From the sequence record NC_054931.1: a stretch of DNA of 64,000 nucleotides, one strand, 5' to 3'. Every line of letters starts with the position of its first letter. The stretch's first letter is position 1. A program made the position numbers and the translations under genes. This document shows, one piece after another, positions 2,200 through 62,996 of the stretch. Below the pieces are notes generated by a model. It ran no database searches and had not been told where the DNA came from. It was given only the letters and a program-made list of their open reading frames with translations. This DNA comes from Escherichia phage T2.

Positions 2200-2403
2200 T
2201 TAATTCATATTACGCTTAATAACTTCAGCAACTTCTAGTAATTCATCTTTAGTTGCGGTGTCGGATTGAATTTTATCTCTAATATCCTTAAAGCGGTTTT
2301 TAAATTCTTCGGCTTCTCCCATATCGAAAAAGCGTTGAATGATTCTATATTCTCGATGAACTGCTTTATCAAAAAGTTCTAAATTTACTCTATATGATTT
2401 CAT
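2200..2403 (-). CDS. hypothetical small protein between rIIA and topoisomerase gene
   Basis: 67-aa ORF, tightly packed upstream of rIIA, preceded by early promoter. Confidence 0.5.
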
Positions 2404-2428
2404 TTCAATATCCTCATTTGCCCAATTA

Positions 2429-2458
2429 ATTATACCACATCCTTGTGGTAAAGTAAAC
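2429..2458 (-). promoter_or_regulatory. T4-type early promoter (-35 GTTTAC, -10 TATAAT) for rIIA.1/rIIA
   Basis: plus strand shows attata (2429-2434), 18-bp spacer, gtaaac (2453-2458). Confidence 0.6.
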
Positions 2459-5815: not shown

Positions 5816-6085
5816 TTAATTGAACAGTGGAGCGATACGTTTCAGAAGAGTAGCAGCACCTTTAGCGAATTTTACATCATGAAAAACAGTTTCTTCTTCT
5901 GTAACAATTCGAACTTTAATATTTTCACAATCCCAATTTTTGCGAACAATCTTCAAAAGCTGCAGTAAATCTTTACATTCAGCAATATCGATAACACATC
6001 CACGAGAATCTTCCATTATCGCACGATAACCATAAGCCATACCATAATCGTTGAAAGATTGCTCGATGATAATTAAGTTTTCCAT
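5816..6085 (-). CDS. hypothetical protein
   Basis: ORF; likely ATG at 6085 with SD ggag inside a conserved leader shared with the gene at 51677. Confidence 0.4.
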   Translation of the reverse strand: MENLIIIEQSFNDYGMAYGYRAIMEDSRGCVIDIAECKDLLQLLKIVRKNWDCENIKVRIVTEEETVFHDVKFAKGAATLLKRIAPLFN

Positions 6086-6183
6086 TTTATTCTCCAAGTT
6101 GTTTTCTGTATCAGTAGTTGATATTGATATAGTACCATAATCAACTACTGATGTATATAGTTTTATGAAAAAATTTTTAAACT

Positions 6184-6675: not shown

Positions 6676-6821
6676 AATTATCTCTCACTTGTTAAAAAGA
6701 TTTTATACTCCGCGGGACCATTATACTCTGGTCCCAAGAGTTTGTAAACTTAATTTAATTCACTAAACGATGAATTCAACACGATAAATTTTCATTTTAT
6801 TATCCTCAGTAGCTATGGTGT

Positions 6822-6852
6822 TATAATACCACAACTAACCGAGGAAGTAAAC
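6822..6852 (-). promoter_or_regulatory. T4-type early promoter
   Basis: gtaaac at 6847-6852 with -10-like ttataata 18 bp away. Confidence 0.5.
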
Positions 6853-13862: not shown

Positions 13863-13959
13863 AGTGCTCTCCTCTATAAGATAATTCTATTATACTATAC
13901 TCATTTTGATATGTAAACTGCAAAAACGAAAAAATGAACCCCGAAGGATTCCTTAAATT

Positions 13960-16005: not shown

Positions 16006-16551
16006 TTATTGCAGCAAAAATGAATTATACAATTCTTCATCATATGTATTTGATAATAATACTAACACGTTTTGTGATTTAGCATATTCATTAAACCTTG
16101 CTTGGATGGTTGGATTATCAGTAAATGATTCTCTTTTTGTCCATTTATTACGTGGATAATATCCGCATGGCAAAAAATCTAATATCATCAATGACACAGG
16201 GTTTTCAGTTTTTGTGTATTCTTTTAATTTCTCTTTATCTTCTAAATATATTCCAACCGAATCAATAGCTGTACCTCCACCAACTTGGTGTTTAATTTCA
16301 ATTATATGCTTTTTACCGTTGCGAGAAATAACAATATCAAATCTTCTAGTACGCTTTTTAGTTATAAAATTAGAGCAAAACAAATTATTTGATTTTTCAG
16401 TATCATCAATTAAAACCATTTTTTCTTGATAACTAACTGAACAATCAGTGAAATATTCTTTTACTTTATTAAGTATGAAATTTTCAACTACGGCAGATAT
16501 TTTATATGAATCTCCGTTTAAAGCCATTTCATGCACAATTTTATTAATCAT
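16006..16551 (-). CDS. hypothetical protein with PD-(D/E)xK nuclease-like motif, directly upstream of dam
   Basis: 181-aa ORF; RFDIVISRNGKKHIIEIKH (D83...E96-x-K98); SD gaggatga; 13-nt gap to dam. Confidence 0.4.
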   Translation of the reverse strand: MINKIVHEMALNGDSYKISAVVENFILNKVKEYFTDCSVSYQEKMVLIDDTEKSNNLFCSNFITKKRTRRFDIVISRNGKKHIIEIKHQVGGGTAIDSVGIYLEDKEKLKEYTKTENPVSLMILDFLPCGYYPRNKWTKRESFTDNPTIQARFNEYAKSQNVLVLLSNTYDEELYNSFLLQ

Positions 16552-19202: not shown

Positions 19203-19231
19203 AACAATCTCCTCATTTAACCAACAAGACT

Positions 19232-19261
19232 ACTATACCATAATCTTGTCAGCTTGTAAAC
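19232..19261 (-). promoter_or_regulatory. T4-type early promoter upstream of dmd
   Basis: gtaaac 19256-19261, 18-bp spacer, -10 TATAGT. Confidence 0.45.
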
Positions 19262-24678: not shown

Positions 24679-24930
24679 TTAAAACTTAACAAATAACTTT
24701 AAAGCATCTTCAGTTTTAATTCCTTTTCTTACACCCATAACAGAAATTGGCTGTGACTGAAATTTTCCTTTACCATTATAAATTTCTAATCCAGTCACCA
24801 TTCCATTTTGTTCTATAATACCGTAAGTGTTACCTTCATTTTCAAATTCTTTAACTTTAAAAAGTTTATTCGCTTTTTCTGCGTTAACAACTTTTAAATT
24901 TTGAATAAAATTAGTTTGAATATTTTTCAT
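24679..24930 (-). CDS. hypothetical protein
   Basis: 83-aa ORF with strong SD ggaggaa. Confidence 0.4.
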   Translation of the reverse strand: MKNIQTNFIQNLKVVNAEKANKLFKVKEFENEGNTYGIIEQNGMVTGLEIYNGKGKFQSQPISVMGVRKGIKTEDALKLFVKF

Positions 24931-24958
24931 TTTGTGTTCCTCCGTAGTTGATAGTTGT

Positions 24959-24988
24959 ATAGTACCACAGAGGAACAGTCTTGTAAAC
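24959..24988 (-). promoter_or_regulatory. T4-type early promoter inside a repeated promoter/leader cassette
   Basis: gtaaac 24983-24988; about 45 bp shared with copy at 50262-50305. Confidence 0.55.
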
Positions 24989-25076
24989 AGTTTTGTGAAA
25001 AAATTTTTAATGAATTCAAAGGGTCCAGAATCATCTGTTTTTCATAAGTATAGATTTATATTACTTGTATGAAAAG

Positions 25077-25092
25077 GGGACCCGGAGGTCCC
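25077..25092 (-). terminator. GC hairpin after gene 43
   Basis: gggacc-cgga-ggtccc perfect inverted repeat flanked by A/T runs. Confidence 0.45.
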
Positions 25093-46790: not shown

Positions 46791-47217
46791 ATTCTTTTAT
46801 GATAATCATATCAGAAGCCAAAGGATGAATTTGACGATAATCACCATAACATAATTTAGAAGCTGATTTTAGAATTTGCTTCTTAAAAAGTCTGAAATTA
46901 CTAATCCAACGACGAGTAAAAATATTCTCAGGGTCTTCTTTGACATTAAGATGATAAGAATTAACATCACCGAACCAATTATATCCTACTACATCTTTGG
47001 TTCGTTTAATTTCTTTCCCAAAATTACCAAGAATATCCCGATTAACCAAATATGAAAGAAGACGAGACTCTTTAAAGGTTTTCTTGATAACATCTTTATC
47101 TACACGGCTAGAAATTTTACGAATTTCATGAATAAATTTAGCAGAAGAAACAATACCTGCATCAACACTATTGAGCCATTGATTGATAATAGAAAGAACA
47201 CTATTTTGGCCAAACAT
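46750..47217 (-). CDS. hypothetical protein
   Basis: 155-aa ORF; weak SD; overlapped upstream by a short hydrophobic ORF with strong SD. Confidence 0.35.
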   Translation of the reverse strand: MFGQNSVLSIINQWLNSVDAGIVSSAKFIHEIRKISSRVDKDVIKKTFKESRLLSYLVNRDILGNFGKEIKRTKDVVGYNWFGDVNSYHLNVKEDPENIFTRRWISNFRLFKKQILKSASKLCYGDYRQIHPLASDMIIIKEYELDKNKAAFCEL

Positions 47218-47304
47218 CGGTATAGCTTTATCATCAATACACTATTGAATGATTTGATATATTCGTTACGAGTCATAATAATCTCCTCAGTAGAAAGTAA
47301 GAAC

Positions 47305-47334
47305 ATTATACCACATCCTTGTGGCAAAGTAAAC
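47305..47334 (-). promoter_or_regulatory. T4-type early promoter (near-identical to the rIIA promoter copy)
   Basis: attataccacatccttgtggcaaagtaaac versus attataccacatccttgtggtaaagtaaac at 2429-2458. Confidence 0.55.
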
Positions 47335-49716: not shown

Positions 49717-50244
49717 TTATGCGAGTACCGTCTTTAACCGTTCTTCAAACTTCCGAAGAGTATTTTGGCGTTCAGCTCTTTGCTTTTTGTAAGTTTCAAT
49801 ACGCTCTGAAATGAGAGTGTATCGTTCATTTACTGATTCTTTCATAAAATCAGGAATTTCACGAGAAGCTTTAATCTCGTCAAATTTATCAATAACAGCT
49901 TGCTCTTCAGCAATTAAGTTATCATACATCAAAATATCTTTCTTGATGAACTCAATATCTTCTTGAGTTACACGAGATAACTTAGATGCTTTATCCTTTT
50001 TGTACTGTTCGTTAGTATCACGAGACCAGTGTAATGTACGATTTTTATTCGTATTTTTGTAAATTTCTACAATACCAATCTCATCGATAATAACGATCCA
50101 ATTCCAACGGGATTTGTAAATTTGTCCTCCATCAACTGTGATTTCACCTCCGATTGAGATGTCATTAAAGAACTTGCTTTGTGCTTCAGATTTAAATTTA
50201 CCATCGTTGTAATTTACCAGGTTGAAAATATCTTTAGCGTTCAT
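49717..50244 (-). CDS. hypothetical protein
   Basis: ORF; track start lies inside promoter cassette, so ATG at 50244 (MNAKDIF) preferred. Confidence 0.4.
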   Translation of the reverse strand: MNAKDIFNLVNYNDGKFKSEAQSKFFNDISIGGEITVDGGQIYKSRWNWIVIIDEIGIVEIYKNTNKNRTLHWSRDTNEQYKKDKASKLSRVTQEDIEFIKKDILMYDNLIAEEQAVIDKFDEIKASREIPDFMKESVNERYTLISERIETYKKQRAERQNTLRKFEERLKTVLA

Positions 50245-50272
50245 TTTCTGTTCATCCGTAGTTGATAGTTGT

Positions 50273-50302
50273 ATAGTACCACAGAGGAACGGTCTTGTAA
50301 AC
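50273..50302 (-). promoter_or_regulatory. T4-type early promoter in repeated cassette
   Basis: gtaaac 50297-50302; cassette shared with 24943-24990. Confidence 0.55.
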
Positions 50303-50304
50303 AA

Positions 50305-50619
50305 CTAAAAGAAACTTCTTTCACAATTTTTTCCACTGAACCACGCGCTCACTGCTTTCTTAGTCTCAGGAGCAGTGTTATCCATAAACCATTCAAAGGC
50401 AGCCTTTTTATGATTCTGGAGGGCTTCTCGGGCTTTAATCTGCTCACGGTCTATTAACACTAACATATGAGCCTTTCTTGTCACCAGGGGCTTCTTATGA
50501 TTTTTTGAATATTCCCAATCATTTGTCCATCGCATCGTTGTTGCGAATTGAAATACAGCTTCTTTAATCTTAGTTTCGTAAATTTCACGAGCCTTTGAGT
50601 ATAACATCATTACCTCCAT
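50305..50619 (-). CDS. hypothetical protein
   Basis: 104-aa ORF. Confidence 0.35.
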   Translation of the reverse strand: MEVMMLYSKAREIYETKIKEAVFQFATTMRWTNDWEYSKNHKKPLVTRKAHMLVLIDREQIKAREALQNHKKAAFEWFMDNTAPETKKAVSAWFSGKNCERSFF

Positions 50620-50708: not shown

Positions 50709-51677
50709 TTATTTCAGAAGAGTAACCTCAGCGATTTCTTCCCAACCGTTTTTGTCGGTCATAATAAAGTCAGCAAGATAAAGAGCAGTACGCAGTGAAA
50801 CATTGCGTAAACGGTTAACATTGACTTTCATCCATGATAATGCTTTATAAGTTTCTTCATCAGAAAGACCGCGCTTTTGCATCATGTCAGTTGAAAGAAT
50901 AACATCTTCAACCCTGACCATAATTTCTTCATTAGTGTGAACACCCAAATCCAAATAAACTGAGCGGGACACTAATGCTTGTAAATGTGGAGCAAGTTTA
51001 GTACCACGGTCTAATTCGCGGTCAATGTCAACGTTTGTGATAAAAACAATCGTTCCTTTAAATTCAAACTCACGCTCAATGCCTTTTTCTTCTAAGTAAG
51101 AAGATGCAGTGCTCCAGCAGACTTTACGGGTCTCTCCAGTGTCCAGAGCAGCTTTCAGAAGATTAAGAATATCCATATCAGAGAAAACATCCACATCATC
51201 AATCAAAAGGACAGAATTCTCTTCACGATTATTCCAGAGCTGTTCATAAAGACCGATACCAGAGATTTTACCGTTAATGCTTTTATATTCAATGTATCCA
51301 ATATCATTTGCTTTATTTAAAGCTTTATCTAAAGAATACGTTTTACCAATACCTGCTGCTCCCGAGATAATTAATGAACGAATGTTTCCGTTAATAATAC
51401 CATTCGTCATCATTCCCATAACATTAAATCTTTTATTAATGCGGGTTTTCATATCTTCATATGATTCTTTAACTTCTTCAACTTTTACACCATCATATGA
51501 AATGTCTGATTTGTAAACCCAAACACCGCGACGTTTACCGTCAATTTCAACAAAAACTTTACCATCTCCTTGTGCATCTACCGGAGCATTATCTGGGAAC
51601 CATTCACCTAAGAGCTCAAAAGTTCCAGAGATTTCTTTACCGAAGTAGATACCCTTATTGATAGTTACAGTTTTCAT
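50709..51677 (-). CDS. AAA+-type ATPase with about 95-aa N-terminal extension
   Basis: Walker A ISGAAGIGKT, Walker B VLLIDDVD, sensor-1-like FITN; ATG at 51677 with SD ggag. Confidence 0.5.
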   Translation of the reverse strand: MKTVTINKGIYFGKEISGTFELLGEWFPDNAPVDAQGDGKVFVEIDGKRRGVWVYKSDISYDGVKVEEVKESYEDMKTRINKRFNVMGMMTNGIINGNIRSLIISGAAGIGKTYSLDKALNKANDIGYIEYKSINGKISGIGLYEQLWNNREENSVLLIDDVDVFSDMDILNLLKAALDTGETRKVCWSTASSYLEEKGIEREFEFKGTIVFITNVDIDRELDRGTKLAPHLQALVSRSVYLDLGVHTNEEIMVRVEDVILSTDMMQKRGLSDEETYKALSWMKVNVNRLRNVSLRTALYLADFIMTDKNGWEEIAEVTLLK

Positions 51678-51711
51678 TTTATTCTCCAAATCCGTATCAG
51701 TTGATAGTTGT

Positions 51712-51741
51712 ATAGTACCATAAAGCTTTATGCTTGTAAAC
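51712..51741 (-). promoter_or_regulatory. T4-type early promoter in repeated cassette
   Basis: gtaaac 51736-51741 with UP-like element; conserved leader ggagaataaaatg. Confidence 0.55.
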
Positions 51742-51770
51742 CATTTTGTGAAAAATTTTTGAAATAAAAA

Positions 51771-51791
51771 AGGGGACCTCTAGGGCCCCCT
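51771..51791 (-). terminator. GC hairpin flanked by A and T runs (bidirectional terminator-like)
   Basis: aggggacc-tctag-ggccccct followed by ttt on plus and preceded by aaaaaa. Confidence 0.45.
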
Positions 51792-51799
51792 TTATGCTT

Positions 51800-52285
51800 T
51801 TATTCCATTTCTATTATATGCATGCTCTTTTTGCTATCAAAATATATGTTTTTAACTGTTAACTCCGAATTAATTGGCAATAAAAACTCTCTTTCATAAT
51901 CCACCATACAAAGATTATCATAAAGCTTATTAAGCTTATTATCATCAGTCTGGCTAGATTCTTCAATTGCGATTAAATTTTCTAAAATTTCAATCATAGC
52001 AGTTGAATAGTCAAAAACGTTTGCATTTTTTAACACTATTAAAACATTAGTCATATAGCGTTCTGCTGCAAATGTTTCAGCTATATGAGATTCACTACTA
52101 AAGGAAGTTATTCTTTTAAATTTGATTCTCCTATTAACTTCAAACTTATAAGATAGTACTTCCTCTATTGTAAGTCCTCTAAAAAGTACGTCTTTAATCT
52201 CAAGTTTGTCTTTAATGTAATCATTAACACGCTTATGATTAAAATCATTAATTTTGTTGCCAAGGCATTTCATTAAAATATGCAT
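51800..52285 (-). CDS. ModA/ModB-family mono-ADP-ribosyltransferase-like protein (third copy)
   Basis: R41 (VLFRG), SFSS at 66-68, E-R-E at 136-138; spacing R-to-S 25 residues as in ModA; aligns with ModA and ModB-like ORFs. Confidence 0.6.
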   Translation of the reverse strand: MHILMKCLGNKINDFNHKRVNDYIKDKLEIKDVLFRGLTIEEVLSYKFEVNRRIKFKRITSFSSESHIAETFAAERYMTNVLIVLKNANVFDYSTAMIEILENLIAIEESSQTDDNKLNKLYDNLCMVDYEREFLLPINSELTVKNIYFDSKKSMHIIEME

Positions 52286-52332
52286 TGTGTTTCTCTTCAA
52301 TTTTTAAAGAACAATTAATTAACTACAAATAT

Positions 52333-52362
52333 ATTATAATATGCTTTATGATAGAAGTAAAC
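52333..52362 (-). promoter_or_regulatory. T4-type early promoter for the ADP-ribosyltransferase-like gene
   Basis: attata 52333-52338, 18-bp spacer, gtaaac 52357-52362, UP-like aaaaatttttcacaaagttgtttac. Confidence 0.55.
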
Positions 52363-52392
52363 AACTTTGTGAAAAAATTTTTGAAATAAAAG

Positions 52393-52410
52393 GGGAGCCC
52401 GAAGGCTCCC
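52393..52410 (-). terminator. C(UUCG)G hairpin terminator
   Basis: gggagcc-cgaa-ggctccc perfect repeat; minus transcript has U-run after stem. Confidence 0.5.
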
Positions 52411-54852: not shown

Positions 54853-55294
54853 CTTCTTGCGTCAAACGATACATGTTATTTACTTTTTCGATCGCTAATT
54901 CACCAAAAAGCACACTATCTTCTAATACTAATCGTTTCATATTGATTCTCTTCGACTCACTCATAATTACATACTCCTCTGAATCATATCAATAATGTTA
55001 TTCACCAAATTATAAGTAAACATTGGGTAATTATATTGAATCATCACATACACAACAAACAAAACTTTCATTCTCTTCTCCTTGGCAGTTGACAAGATTA
55101 CTATACCATAACCTTGCCAACTTGTAAACCATTAAATGACGTTTTCGATAAAATTCTGAAGCTTTGTATGAGCATCAACCATGATTTTCATTTCTTCTTT
55201 GGCGAAAGCTATACCTCTTTCACGAGAAGAACATTCATAGTCAGAAACTGCATTAGCATATTCTTCAATTAGCTTCATTAAAAACATCTGTTTT

Positions 55295-55710: not shown

Positions 55711-55862
55711 GCCATGTGAGTTGCAACTTCATCACACATATTATAACGTTTCTTGAGAAGTTCTACAAGTTCTTCACTAGTAACTTCATCCATGTCGACG
55801 AAAAAATCACCATTAATGATGACGTAGATATTTCCTTCTTGATTAAGTGCTTCAATTTTCAT
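55674..55862 (-). CDS. hypothetical protein
   Basis: ATG at 55862 with SD gaggag (MKIEALN...); track start lies in promoter. Confidence 0.35.
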
Positions 55863-55890
55863 GATGTTCTCCTCTTTATCCGATAGTTGT

Positions 55891-55920
55891 ATAGTACCAC
55901 AGCTCAAACGGAAAGTAAAC
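55891..55920 (-). promoter_or_regulatory. T4-type early promoter in repeated cassette
   Basis: gtaaac 55915-55920; shares gatagttgtatagtaccaca with other cassettes. Confidence 0.5.
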
Positions 55921-55936
55921 CGGTAAAATGAAAAAA

Positions 55937-55952
55937 GTCTCCCGAAGGAGAC
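55937..55952 (-). terminator. C(UUCG)G hairpin
   Basis: gtctcc-cgaa-ggagac perfect inverted repeat preceded by A-run. Confidence 0.45.
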
Positions 55953-55957
55953 TAATG

Positions 55958-60279: not shown

Positions 60280-60309
60280 ATTATACCACAGTCAAGAGGA
60301 AAAGTAAAC
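60280..60309 (-). promoter_or_regulatory. T4-type early promoter upstream of regB
   Basis: attata 60280-60285, 18-bp spacer, gtaaac 60304-60309. Confidence 0.5.
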
Positions 60310-62966: not shown

Positions 62967-62996
62967 ATACTATCACAATTCCAAGAGAAAGTAGAC
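62967..62996 (-). promoter_or_regulatory. early-promoter-like element upstream of IP gene (variant -35 GTCTAC)
   Basis: gtagac 62991-62996 with -10-like tagtat 18 bp away. Confidence 0.35.

Follow-up and report, generated by a model that had tools for sequence, protein, structure and literature searches.

Short, nearly identical segments recur in the early region of Escherichia phage T2. A preliminary description of this DNA proposed that each combined a T4-type early promoter with a conserved 5' leader and Shine-Dalgarno (SD) sequence, often next to a GC hairpin, and that such repeats could mediate the modular shuffling of accessory genes. What are these segments, and is gene content in fact exchanged at them? 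We analyzed the first 64 kb of the T2 genome (64,000 nucleotides of NC_054931.1, referred to as the window), covering the early region from rIIA through nudE/e.3. A 10-kb slice of the window was 100% identical to several Escherichia phage T2 genomes, and gene annotation was taken from MH751506, to which the whole window aligned at 99.98%; annotated genes were on the minus strand throughout, save one small ORF. The repeats are real and the shuffling reading is correct, and the phenomenon is already known, since it matches the published model of the promoter-early stem-loop (PeSL) cassettes of T4-like phages (Arbiol et al. 2010, PMC2839356; Comeau et al. 2014, PMC4122927). The repeats are very probably sigma-70 early promoters of T2 (PeSL cassettes), at which recombination gains, loses, and swaps accessory genes.

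The first family was best represented by a 49-mer, the two copies of which (24941-24989 and 50255-50303) differed at one position; an R-containing 49-mer pattern matched both sites with 0 mismatches, and 0 occurrences were expected by chance (100 shuffles). The segments of the preliminary description were recovered, with positions that had to be shifted by 2-7 nt. The repeat finder, which groups the looser family 1 copies as families D1 and D2, also returned the related copies (51694-51742 and 55873-55921) and the variant (6111-6160). The second family was found exactly where it had been placed, as a 30-mer at 2429-2458 and 47305-47334 with one difference and none expected in shuffles. A third near-identical pair, previously missed, was located at 19224-19261 (dmd) and 55092-55129 (mobD.2), with 90% identity over 30 nt and 82% in the spacer (repeat-finder family D6, 89%).

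The repeats are read on the minus strand, i.e., with the early genes, in the order UP element, GTTTAC, N17, TGgTAnnAT, SD, and ATG. A typical T2 early promoter consisted of an A/T-rich tract (AAAAATTTTTTCACAAA), GTTTAC, a 17-nt spacer usually ending in TG, and GTA(c/t)(t/a)AT, with a GGAG/GAGG SD and the ATG of an annotated gene ~25-35 nt past the -10. The genes behind the named copies were RB51ORF048 (ORF048), nrdC.8, nrdC.10, mobD.5, T2_9, rIIA.1, and nrdC.4, and all of these copies carried GTTTAC-N17-(TG)GTAnnAT except that at 6158, with a deviating -35 (promoters are referred to by the first position of the -35; Table 1). The UP tract was of the AAAAATTTTTTCACAAA type at 24988, 51741, 52362, 39640, and 6158, and weaker at 50302, 2458, and 47334, where upstream coding sequence overlaps. 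Since a generic sigma-70 scan was too unspecific (113 sites found versus 88.5 expected), a T2-specific position matrix was trained on 18 T2 early promoters; with a threshold of 12 bits, it found 22 sites on the minus strand of the window and 0 on the plus strand. As judged by alignment, for which the T4 record was used without promoter features, the T2 promoters are positional orthologues of the T4 intergenic sequences 5' of rIIA.1, nrdC.4, nrdC.8, nrdC.10, mobD.5, and imm.1.

T4 early promoters possess UP/-35/TGn/-10 elements plus additional consensus regions, the strong type being termed "uber" (Hinton 2010, PMC2988021), and the T2 copies shared this organization. Right after infection, the sigma-70 RNA polymerase of the host transcribes from such promoters, and ADP-ribosylation of its alpha subunit by Alt stimulates some of them (PMC2988021). 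From their sequence and the knowledge of T4, we infer that the minus-strand sites are active as early promoters. T2 differed from T4 at the promoter after gene 43, which serves an additional gene, ORF048, and has a spacer and leader of the nrdC.8 type, and in the presence of a further promoter for T2_95. The proposed T4-type core was present in both families, and a common leader and SD in family 1, in which ACAACTATC(AACTAC) is followed by a GGAG-type SD and ATG; on the other hand, only the 30-nt core from -35 to -10 was common to both copies of family 2, the leaders and SD regions of which are unrelated.

Hairpins were often adjacent, as had been noted: terminator hairpins were found directly 5' of the nrdC.10 (51741), T2_95 (52362), and mobD.5 (55920) promoters and ~70 nt upstream of that of ORF048 (24988), and a hairpin with a T-tract also directly 5' of the mrh.2 promoter; a terminator hairpin was likewise counted at the promoter at 13918. 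Their free energies ranged between -7.2 and -16.4 kcal/mol, the loops being mostly UUCG, and they probably insulate the transcription units. No adjacent terminator hairpin was found at the nrdC.8, rIIA.1, and nrdC.4 promoters, and no convincing stem-loop upstream of, within, or overlapping that of nrdC.8 (50302). Inverted repeats internal to the promoter were present at 6158, 2458/47334, 19261/55129, and 6749, and resemble the PeSL subclasses with internal stem-loops (Arbiol et al., PMC2839356). The spacer of family 2 holds CCACA-AGGA-TGTGG (2429-2458 and 47305-47334), and ACAAGA/TCTTGT brackets the -10 box of the dmd and mobD.2 promoters. As separate observations, GGGACC/GGTCCC surrounds the -10 of the motB promoter (6720-6749, minus strand), and an 11-bp inverted repeat surrounds that of the T2_9 promoter (6110-6160, minus strand); the leader of the latter is ATCAACTACTG, and an 11-nt inverted copy, CAGTAGTTGAT, lies in the spacer of the same promoter.

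Table 1. Promoter cassettes, terminator hairpin, and cargo genes in the window
Feature	Position	Strand	Description
rIIA.1 early promoter	2401-2458	-	Family 2 30-mer 2429-2458; stable junction; the G of GTTTAC falls within the TAG stop of gene 39
Variant cassette 5' of T2_9	6083-6183	-	-35 ATATAC (6158); TGgTACTAT; ATG 6085; 28 bits
RB51ORF048	24679-24930	-	83 aa, phrog_18567; variable cargo between common leader and imm.1 SD
RB51ORF048 early promoter cassette	24928-25013	-	Contains repeat copy 24941-24989; UP element 25013-24989; -35 GTTTAC 24988-24983; 17-nt spacer; TGgTACTAT; leader CAACTATCAACTAC; SD GGAGGA; ATG 24930; 48.7 bits, highest matrix score in the window
Gene 43 terminator hairpin	25071-25092	-	GGGACC-UCCG-GGUCCC, then CUUUUC; -12.8 kcal/mol
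nrdC.4 early promoter	47274-47334	-	Family 2 30-mer 47305-47334; stable junction; the G of GTTTAC falls within the TAG stop of nrdC.5
nrdC.8 early promoter cassette	50242-50327	-	Contains repeat copy 50255-50303; -35 G 50302; ATG 50244
PeSL 5' of nrdC.10	51675-51793	-	Hairpin 51769-51793 (-16.4 kcal/mol); T-tract; UP element; -35 G 51741; TGgTACTAT; leader; SD; ATG 51677; downstream flank of T2_95
T2_95	51800-52285	-	161 aa; ADP-ribosyltransferase-like by PHROG; cargo between two PeSLs
PeSL 5' of T2_95	52283-52410	-	Hairpin 52393-52410 (GGGAGCC-UUCG-GGCUCCC); T-tract; UP element; -35 G 52362; TATAAT; ATG 52285; upstream flank of T2_95
PeSL 5' of mobD.5	55860-55953	-	Hairpin 55936-55953 with T-tract; -35 G 55920; TGgTACTAT; leader ACAACTATC; SD; ATG 55862; stable junction
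regB early promoter core	60280-60309	-	One endpoint of the 2.7-kb T6 deletion
ip4 early promoter core	62967-62996	-	GTCTAC as -35; other endpoint of the T6 deletion

Flanking gene content was compared with T4, T6, RB51, ~500 Tequatrovirus records, and two Moonvirus phages. The comparison bore out modular shuffling: breakpoints were found within two cassettes (24941-24989 and 51694-51742), at both edges of a third (6111-6160), and also at the promoters at 52362, 60309, 62996, 16606, and 6749, none of which had been listed before.

The clearest example was T2_95, which matched PHROG 832 ("RNA polymerase ADP-ribosylase") with E = 1.8e-23 and was present in only 42 phage records. The two PeSLs around this gene have ~45-49 nt in common, and the T4 alignment overlapped by 49-50 nt across its flanks. 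In place of T2_95 and both PeSLs, T4, T6, and RB51 possess one hybrid PeSL: its hairpin and UP tract are those of the upstream copy and its spacer, -10, and leader those of the downstream one, with the GTTTAC hexamer as the switch point in T6 and RB51. T2_95 DNA was 96-97% identical in Moonvirus phages CF1 and KM16, versus 67-74% for the flanking genes; in CF1, the cassette was 96% identical over 701 nt (nrdC.11, 67%; nrdC.10, 74%). The high-identity block started 5 nt upstream of the -35; its other end was the ATG that follows the next leader in CF1, and in KM16 the next -35. This DNA comparison indicates a probable recent transfer of T2_95, a ModA/ModB-like gene, between genera.

The site after gene 43 showed three alleles behind its promoter: no insert, ORF048, and ORF-Y. 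ORF048 was found in T2 and RB51, and not in T4 and T6, where the leader runs straight into imm.1; many relatives (T4-like contigs) have an unrelated ORF of 78-85 aa in its place, and only 29 of 521 phage records covered >=80% of the query at this site. The left boundary of the insert is the common leader after CAACTATCAACTAC, and the right boundary, common to both inserted alleles, is the imm.1 SD, GAGGAAATTATTATG; the repeat ATGAAAAT can explain the putative loss of the insert. The spacer of this promoter belonged to the nrdC.8 type in T2 and to the e.8 type in T6, and T4 and RB51 had a hybrid spacer, despite flanks that were ~97% identical among these four phages; each of the versions has a match in a promoter at some other site. 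Furthermore, positions 24926-24989 of T2 were 98.4% identical to the region upstream of nrdC.8 in T4, versus 90% to their own positional orthologue. These spacer differences probably arose by patchy ectopic conversion, with the nrdC.8 cassette as the apparent donor type for the copy at 24941.

In T6, 2.7 kb (vs.3 through ip4) is missing, and the ip4 and regB promoters are fused there into one hybrid at the -35; the ip4 promoter junction (62996) also carries denV and IP-gene differences in T4 and RB51. At T2_9, 212 of 522 records had an intact junction. The breakpoint of the T2_9 indel in T4 and T6 lay 10 nt from the cassette and suggested a promoter-mediated event, which was rejected: both phages keep the promoter, SD, and ATG in front of a remnant of 11 codons (MENSLKVLILF* in T4) made by an internal deletion at AAAAYT microhomology, which leaves an orphan expression cassette between cef and motB. 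Similarly, a full-strength early promoter of T2 with its -35 at 6852 (42.9 bits) drives only a 10-codon motB.2 remnant, MKIYRVEFIV* (6762-6852, minus strand); the corresponding site of T4, T6, and RB51 holds motB.2 and motB.1 (RB32ORF010c in its place in T6), and the T2 deletion ends just 5' of the motB promoter. Both remnants represent plain microhomology deletions inside an ORF beside cassettes.

In the mechanism that we propose, the T2 early promoters would fire from the minus strand once the DNA enters the cell, with the A/T-rich UP element as the presumed site for the C-terminal domains of the RNA polymerase alpha subunits, and the early gene downstream would often be small. Selection would maintain the consensus blocks, while the non-consensus spacer and leader would be copied between promoters by ectopic recombination, either homologous or at microhomology, and by gene conversion in patches. 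The conserved blocks would supply the homology or microhomology within the highly recombinogenic T-even replication cycle, and the same inter-cassette exchanges would delete, insert, or replace the genes in between. The exchange junctions clustered at two points: the -35 GTTTAC with the UP tract (T2_95 hybrids of T6 and RB51, T6 deletion, and edges of the Moonvirus block) and the leader/SD-ATG (ORF048, ORF-Y, and right edge in CF1). Since crossovers fall at either point, a gene that moves would bring along, or come to lie behind, a working promoter, ribosome-binding site, and terminator. This fits the accepted picture, in which T-even phages swap accessory genes at their own regulatory cassettes, such that new genes are expressed on arrival.

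One alternative is that family 1 (GGTACTATACAACTATCAACT...) forms a regulatory sub-class, the -10, initially transcribed region, and leader of which are conserved by a phage or host factor or an RNA feature (Alt-modified polymerase, RegB cleavage at GGAG, or some other binder), with recombination as a side effect; we regard this as unlikely. A 17-mer spanning the -10 and leader, GGTACTATACAACTATC, was found 5' of at least 13 unrelated first ORFs in T2, T4, and T4-like contigs of IMG/VR, a conservation across T4-like phages that a sub-class would account for; three IMG/VR matches within coding sequence were set aside as chance. The leaders also carry GGAG, the target motif of RegB according to gene annotation. 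Early promoters that share the same core elements respond to Alt to different extents, which is unexplained (Hinton, PMC2988021). However, no factor is known to act on family 1, spacer and leader types were mosaic among the carriers of the 17-mer, the leader was variable 3' of CAACTATC, no Rfam match to a structured RNA or known RNA family was obtained anywhere in the window, and the footprints of recombination were directly visible.

The differences between relatives may also have been driven by homing endonucleases together with random illegitimate recombination, promoters being found at breakpoints because both are intergenic; this account appears rather improbable. Junctions were counted by hand against three relatives (T4, T6, and RB51), which gave 30 indel or replacement events in the window, insertion and deletion not being told apart, and homing endonucleases (mob, seg) or an intron were involved in 9 of them. 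Indels were present at 8 of 19 promoter junctions versus 30 of 110 others (odds ratio 1.9, one-sided Fisher p = 0.15), such that 30 promoter-less junctions also carried breakpoints, as this account would have it. When the homing-endonuclease events were left out, the counts were 8 of 19 versus 20 of 110 (odds ratio 3.3, p = 0.026). Under a uniform-position null, which ignores the intergenic confinement of viable indels, 8 of 21 non-endonuclease events in a cassette gave p ~2e-5. The enrichment at the level of junctions was modest, and not significant with all events counted. Stronger evidence for exchange at the cassettes is provided by the hybrid promoters, conversion patches, and block edges: endonucleases and random recombination do not explain events with homologous promoter sequence at both ends (T2_95 and the T6 deletion), hybrid promoters, or spacer conversion. 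On the other hand, four of the seven named copies (2458, 47334, 50302, and 55920) were at junctions intact in ~95-99% of ~500 Tequatrovirus genomes (rIIA.1, 480 of 497; nrdC.4, 465 of 492; nrdC.8, 497 records; mobD.5, 497 of 501).

A reading that goes further is that the promoters are dedicated attachment points used by a targeted process, or that the -10 and leader of family 1 are a co-regulated plug-in slot for accessory genes, which we consider quite unlikely. In such a process, polymerase-bound or hairpin-stalled DNA, for example, might provoke template switching, and the cassettes may then be more than passive homology.

Functional convergence, in which selection for RNA polymerase binding pulls strong promoters to one optimum and recombination plays no role, is very improbable. 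It is consistent with the UP, GTTTAC, and TGgTAnnAT blocks common to all ~20 promoters and with the four named copies at invariant junctions. However, the identity reached the non-consensus spacer and leader. Among 171 pairs of early promoters in the window, identity in the 17-nt spacer showed a median of 41% and a 95th percentile of 65%, versus 94% for the two reported pairs, and, therefore, the similarity exceeded that of the shared promoter consensus alone. A chance or low-complexity origin was rejected, given the 0 expected in shuffles and spacer identity far above this distribution. Convergence is also at odds with the different paralogue-type spacers of the one orthologous promoter after gene 43, with hybrid promoters precisely where genes are missing, and with the edges at -35 and ATG of the 96% block shared between genera. 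Segmental duplication of promoter and gene together is hardly credible: the best family 1 pair extends to 64 nt at 95% (24926-24989 and 50240-50303) and takes in the SD and ATG, but ends within the second codon (ATGAA), its upstream flanks differ too, and it is not a gene duplication because the downstream proteins, ORF048 and nrdC.8, are unrelated (BLASTP E = 9.3).

The promoter and terminator activities of PeSLs and the formation of mini-circles were demonstrated experimentally for RB49 and phi1 (PMC2839356), and later work took the model to PST/T4, a T-even pair, with TTTACW-N17-TAYWAT as the consensus (PMC4122927), which the T2 copies fit. T2 cassettes shared with PeSLs the AT-rich region, sigma-70-like promoter, SD, and ATG, and some of them also the stem-loop, were repeated 5' of small ORFs in hyperplastic regions, and also contained an ORF between two cassettes in one phage versus one hybrid cassette in a close relative; T2_95 is the direct analogue of ORFan192 of RB49 (Arbiol et al., PMC2839356). 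They differed in that the nrdC.8, rIIA.1, and nrdC.4 copies have no terminator hairpin next to them and the upstream gene reaches into them with its 3' end. The association with indels expected of a PeSL was found at 24988, 51741, 52362, 60309, 62996, 16606, and 6749, but not at 50302, 55920, 2458, and 47334, where the junctions were essentially invariant among ~500 Tequatrovirus records. No catalogue of T2 PeSLs was found in PMC2839356 or PMC4122927, and the shuffling idea of the preliminary description closely mirrors the title of the former.

At the T-even IP locus, the regulatory sequences are conserved and different IP and denV genes are swapped in between them (Repoila et al. 1994, as cited in PMC4122927); as represented in that citation, the work dealt with one locus and proposed no mechanism, in contrast to the pattern at several loci of T2. 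The ip4|e junction of T2 at 62996 is similarly a breakpoint in T4, T6, and RB51.

Integron gene cassettes (attC/attI) are single ORFs inserted or excised at promoter-proximal slots, possibly as circles. The likeness is an analogy only: T2 cassettes have neither an integrase nor an attC-like structured site, and their junctions vary (-35, leader, and SD-ATG), as expected for exchange driven by homology or microhomology.

The T2 junctions are clean new examples resolved to the base, and leave the accepted picture unchanged. For annotation, they provide ~20 early promoters and several terminators in the window; further uses are the choice of safe insertion sites for T2/T4 engineering and the reading of breakpoints in pan-genomes.

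Several minor observations were made on genes in the window. The SD of nrdC.8 in T2 is GGATGA, versus GGAGGA in T4 and IMG/VR relatives (50250-50258, minus strand), a change that removes the GGAG (RegB-type) motif in T2. The ATG behind the nrdC.4 promoter of T2 opens a frame of only 58 aa (47100-47276, minus strand), versus 333 aa in T4, and the nrdC.4 CDS in the T2 record is shorter and begins at an internal start codon; this may reflect a frameshift, a sequencing error, or a pseudogene. A Pfam search of the cargo ORF048, T2_95, T2_9, and ORF-Y yielded no match. T2_31 (16006-16551, minus strand) adjoins the dam GATC methyltransferase gene and is missing in T4, and together with dam in T6 and RB51. 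Its match to the Pfam DpnII (GATC) restriction endonuclease was sub-threshold (E = 0.0096; 15.7 bits with a cut-off of 23), and T2_31 may be a remnant or distant relative of the cognate nuclease. Furthermore, nrdC.2, RB32ORF097c, mobD.1, and vs.8 are annotated in T2 as split N-/C-terminal fragments (MH751506; 44985-45270, 53881-54399, 54555-54960, and 61760-62120), suggesting the ongoing decay of accessory genes in the hyperplastic regions of T2, a laboratory phage.
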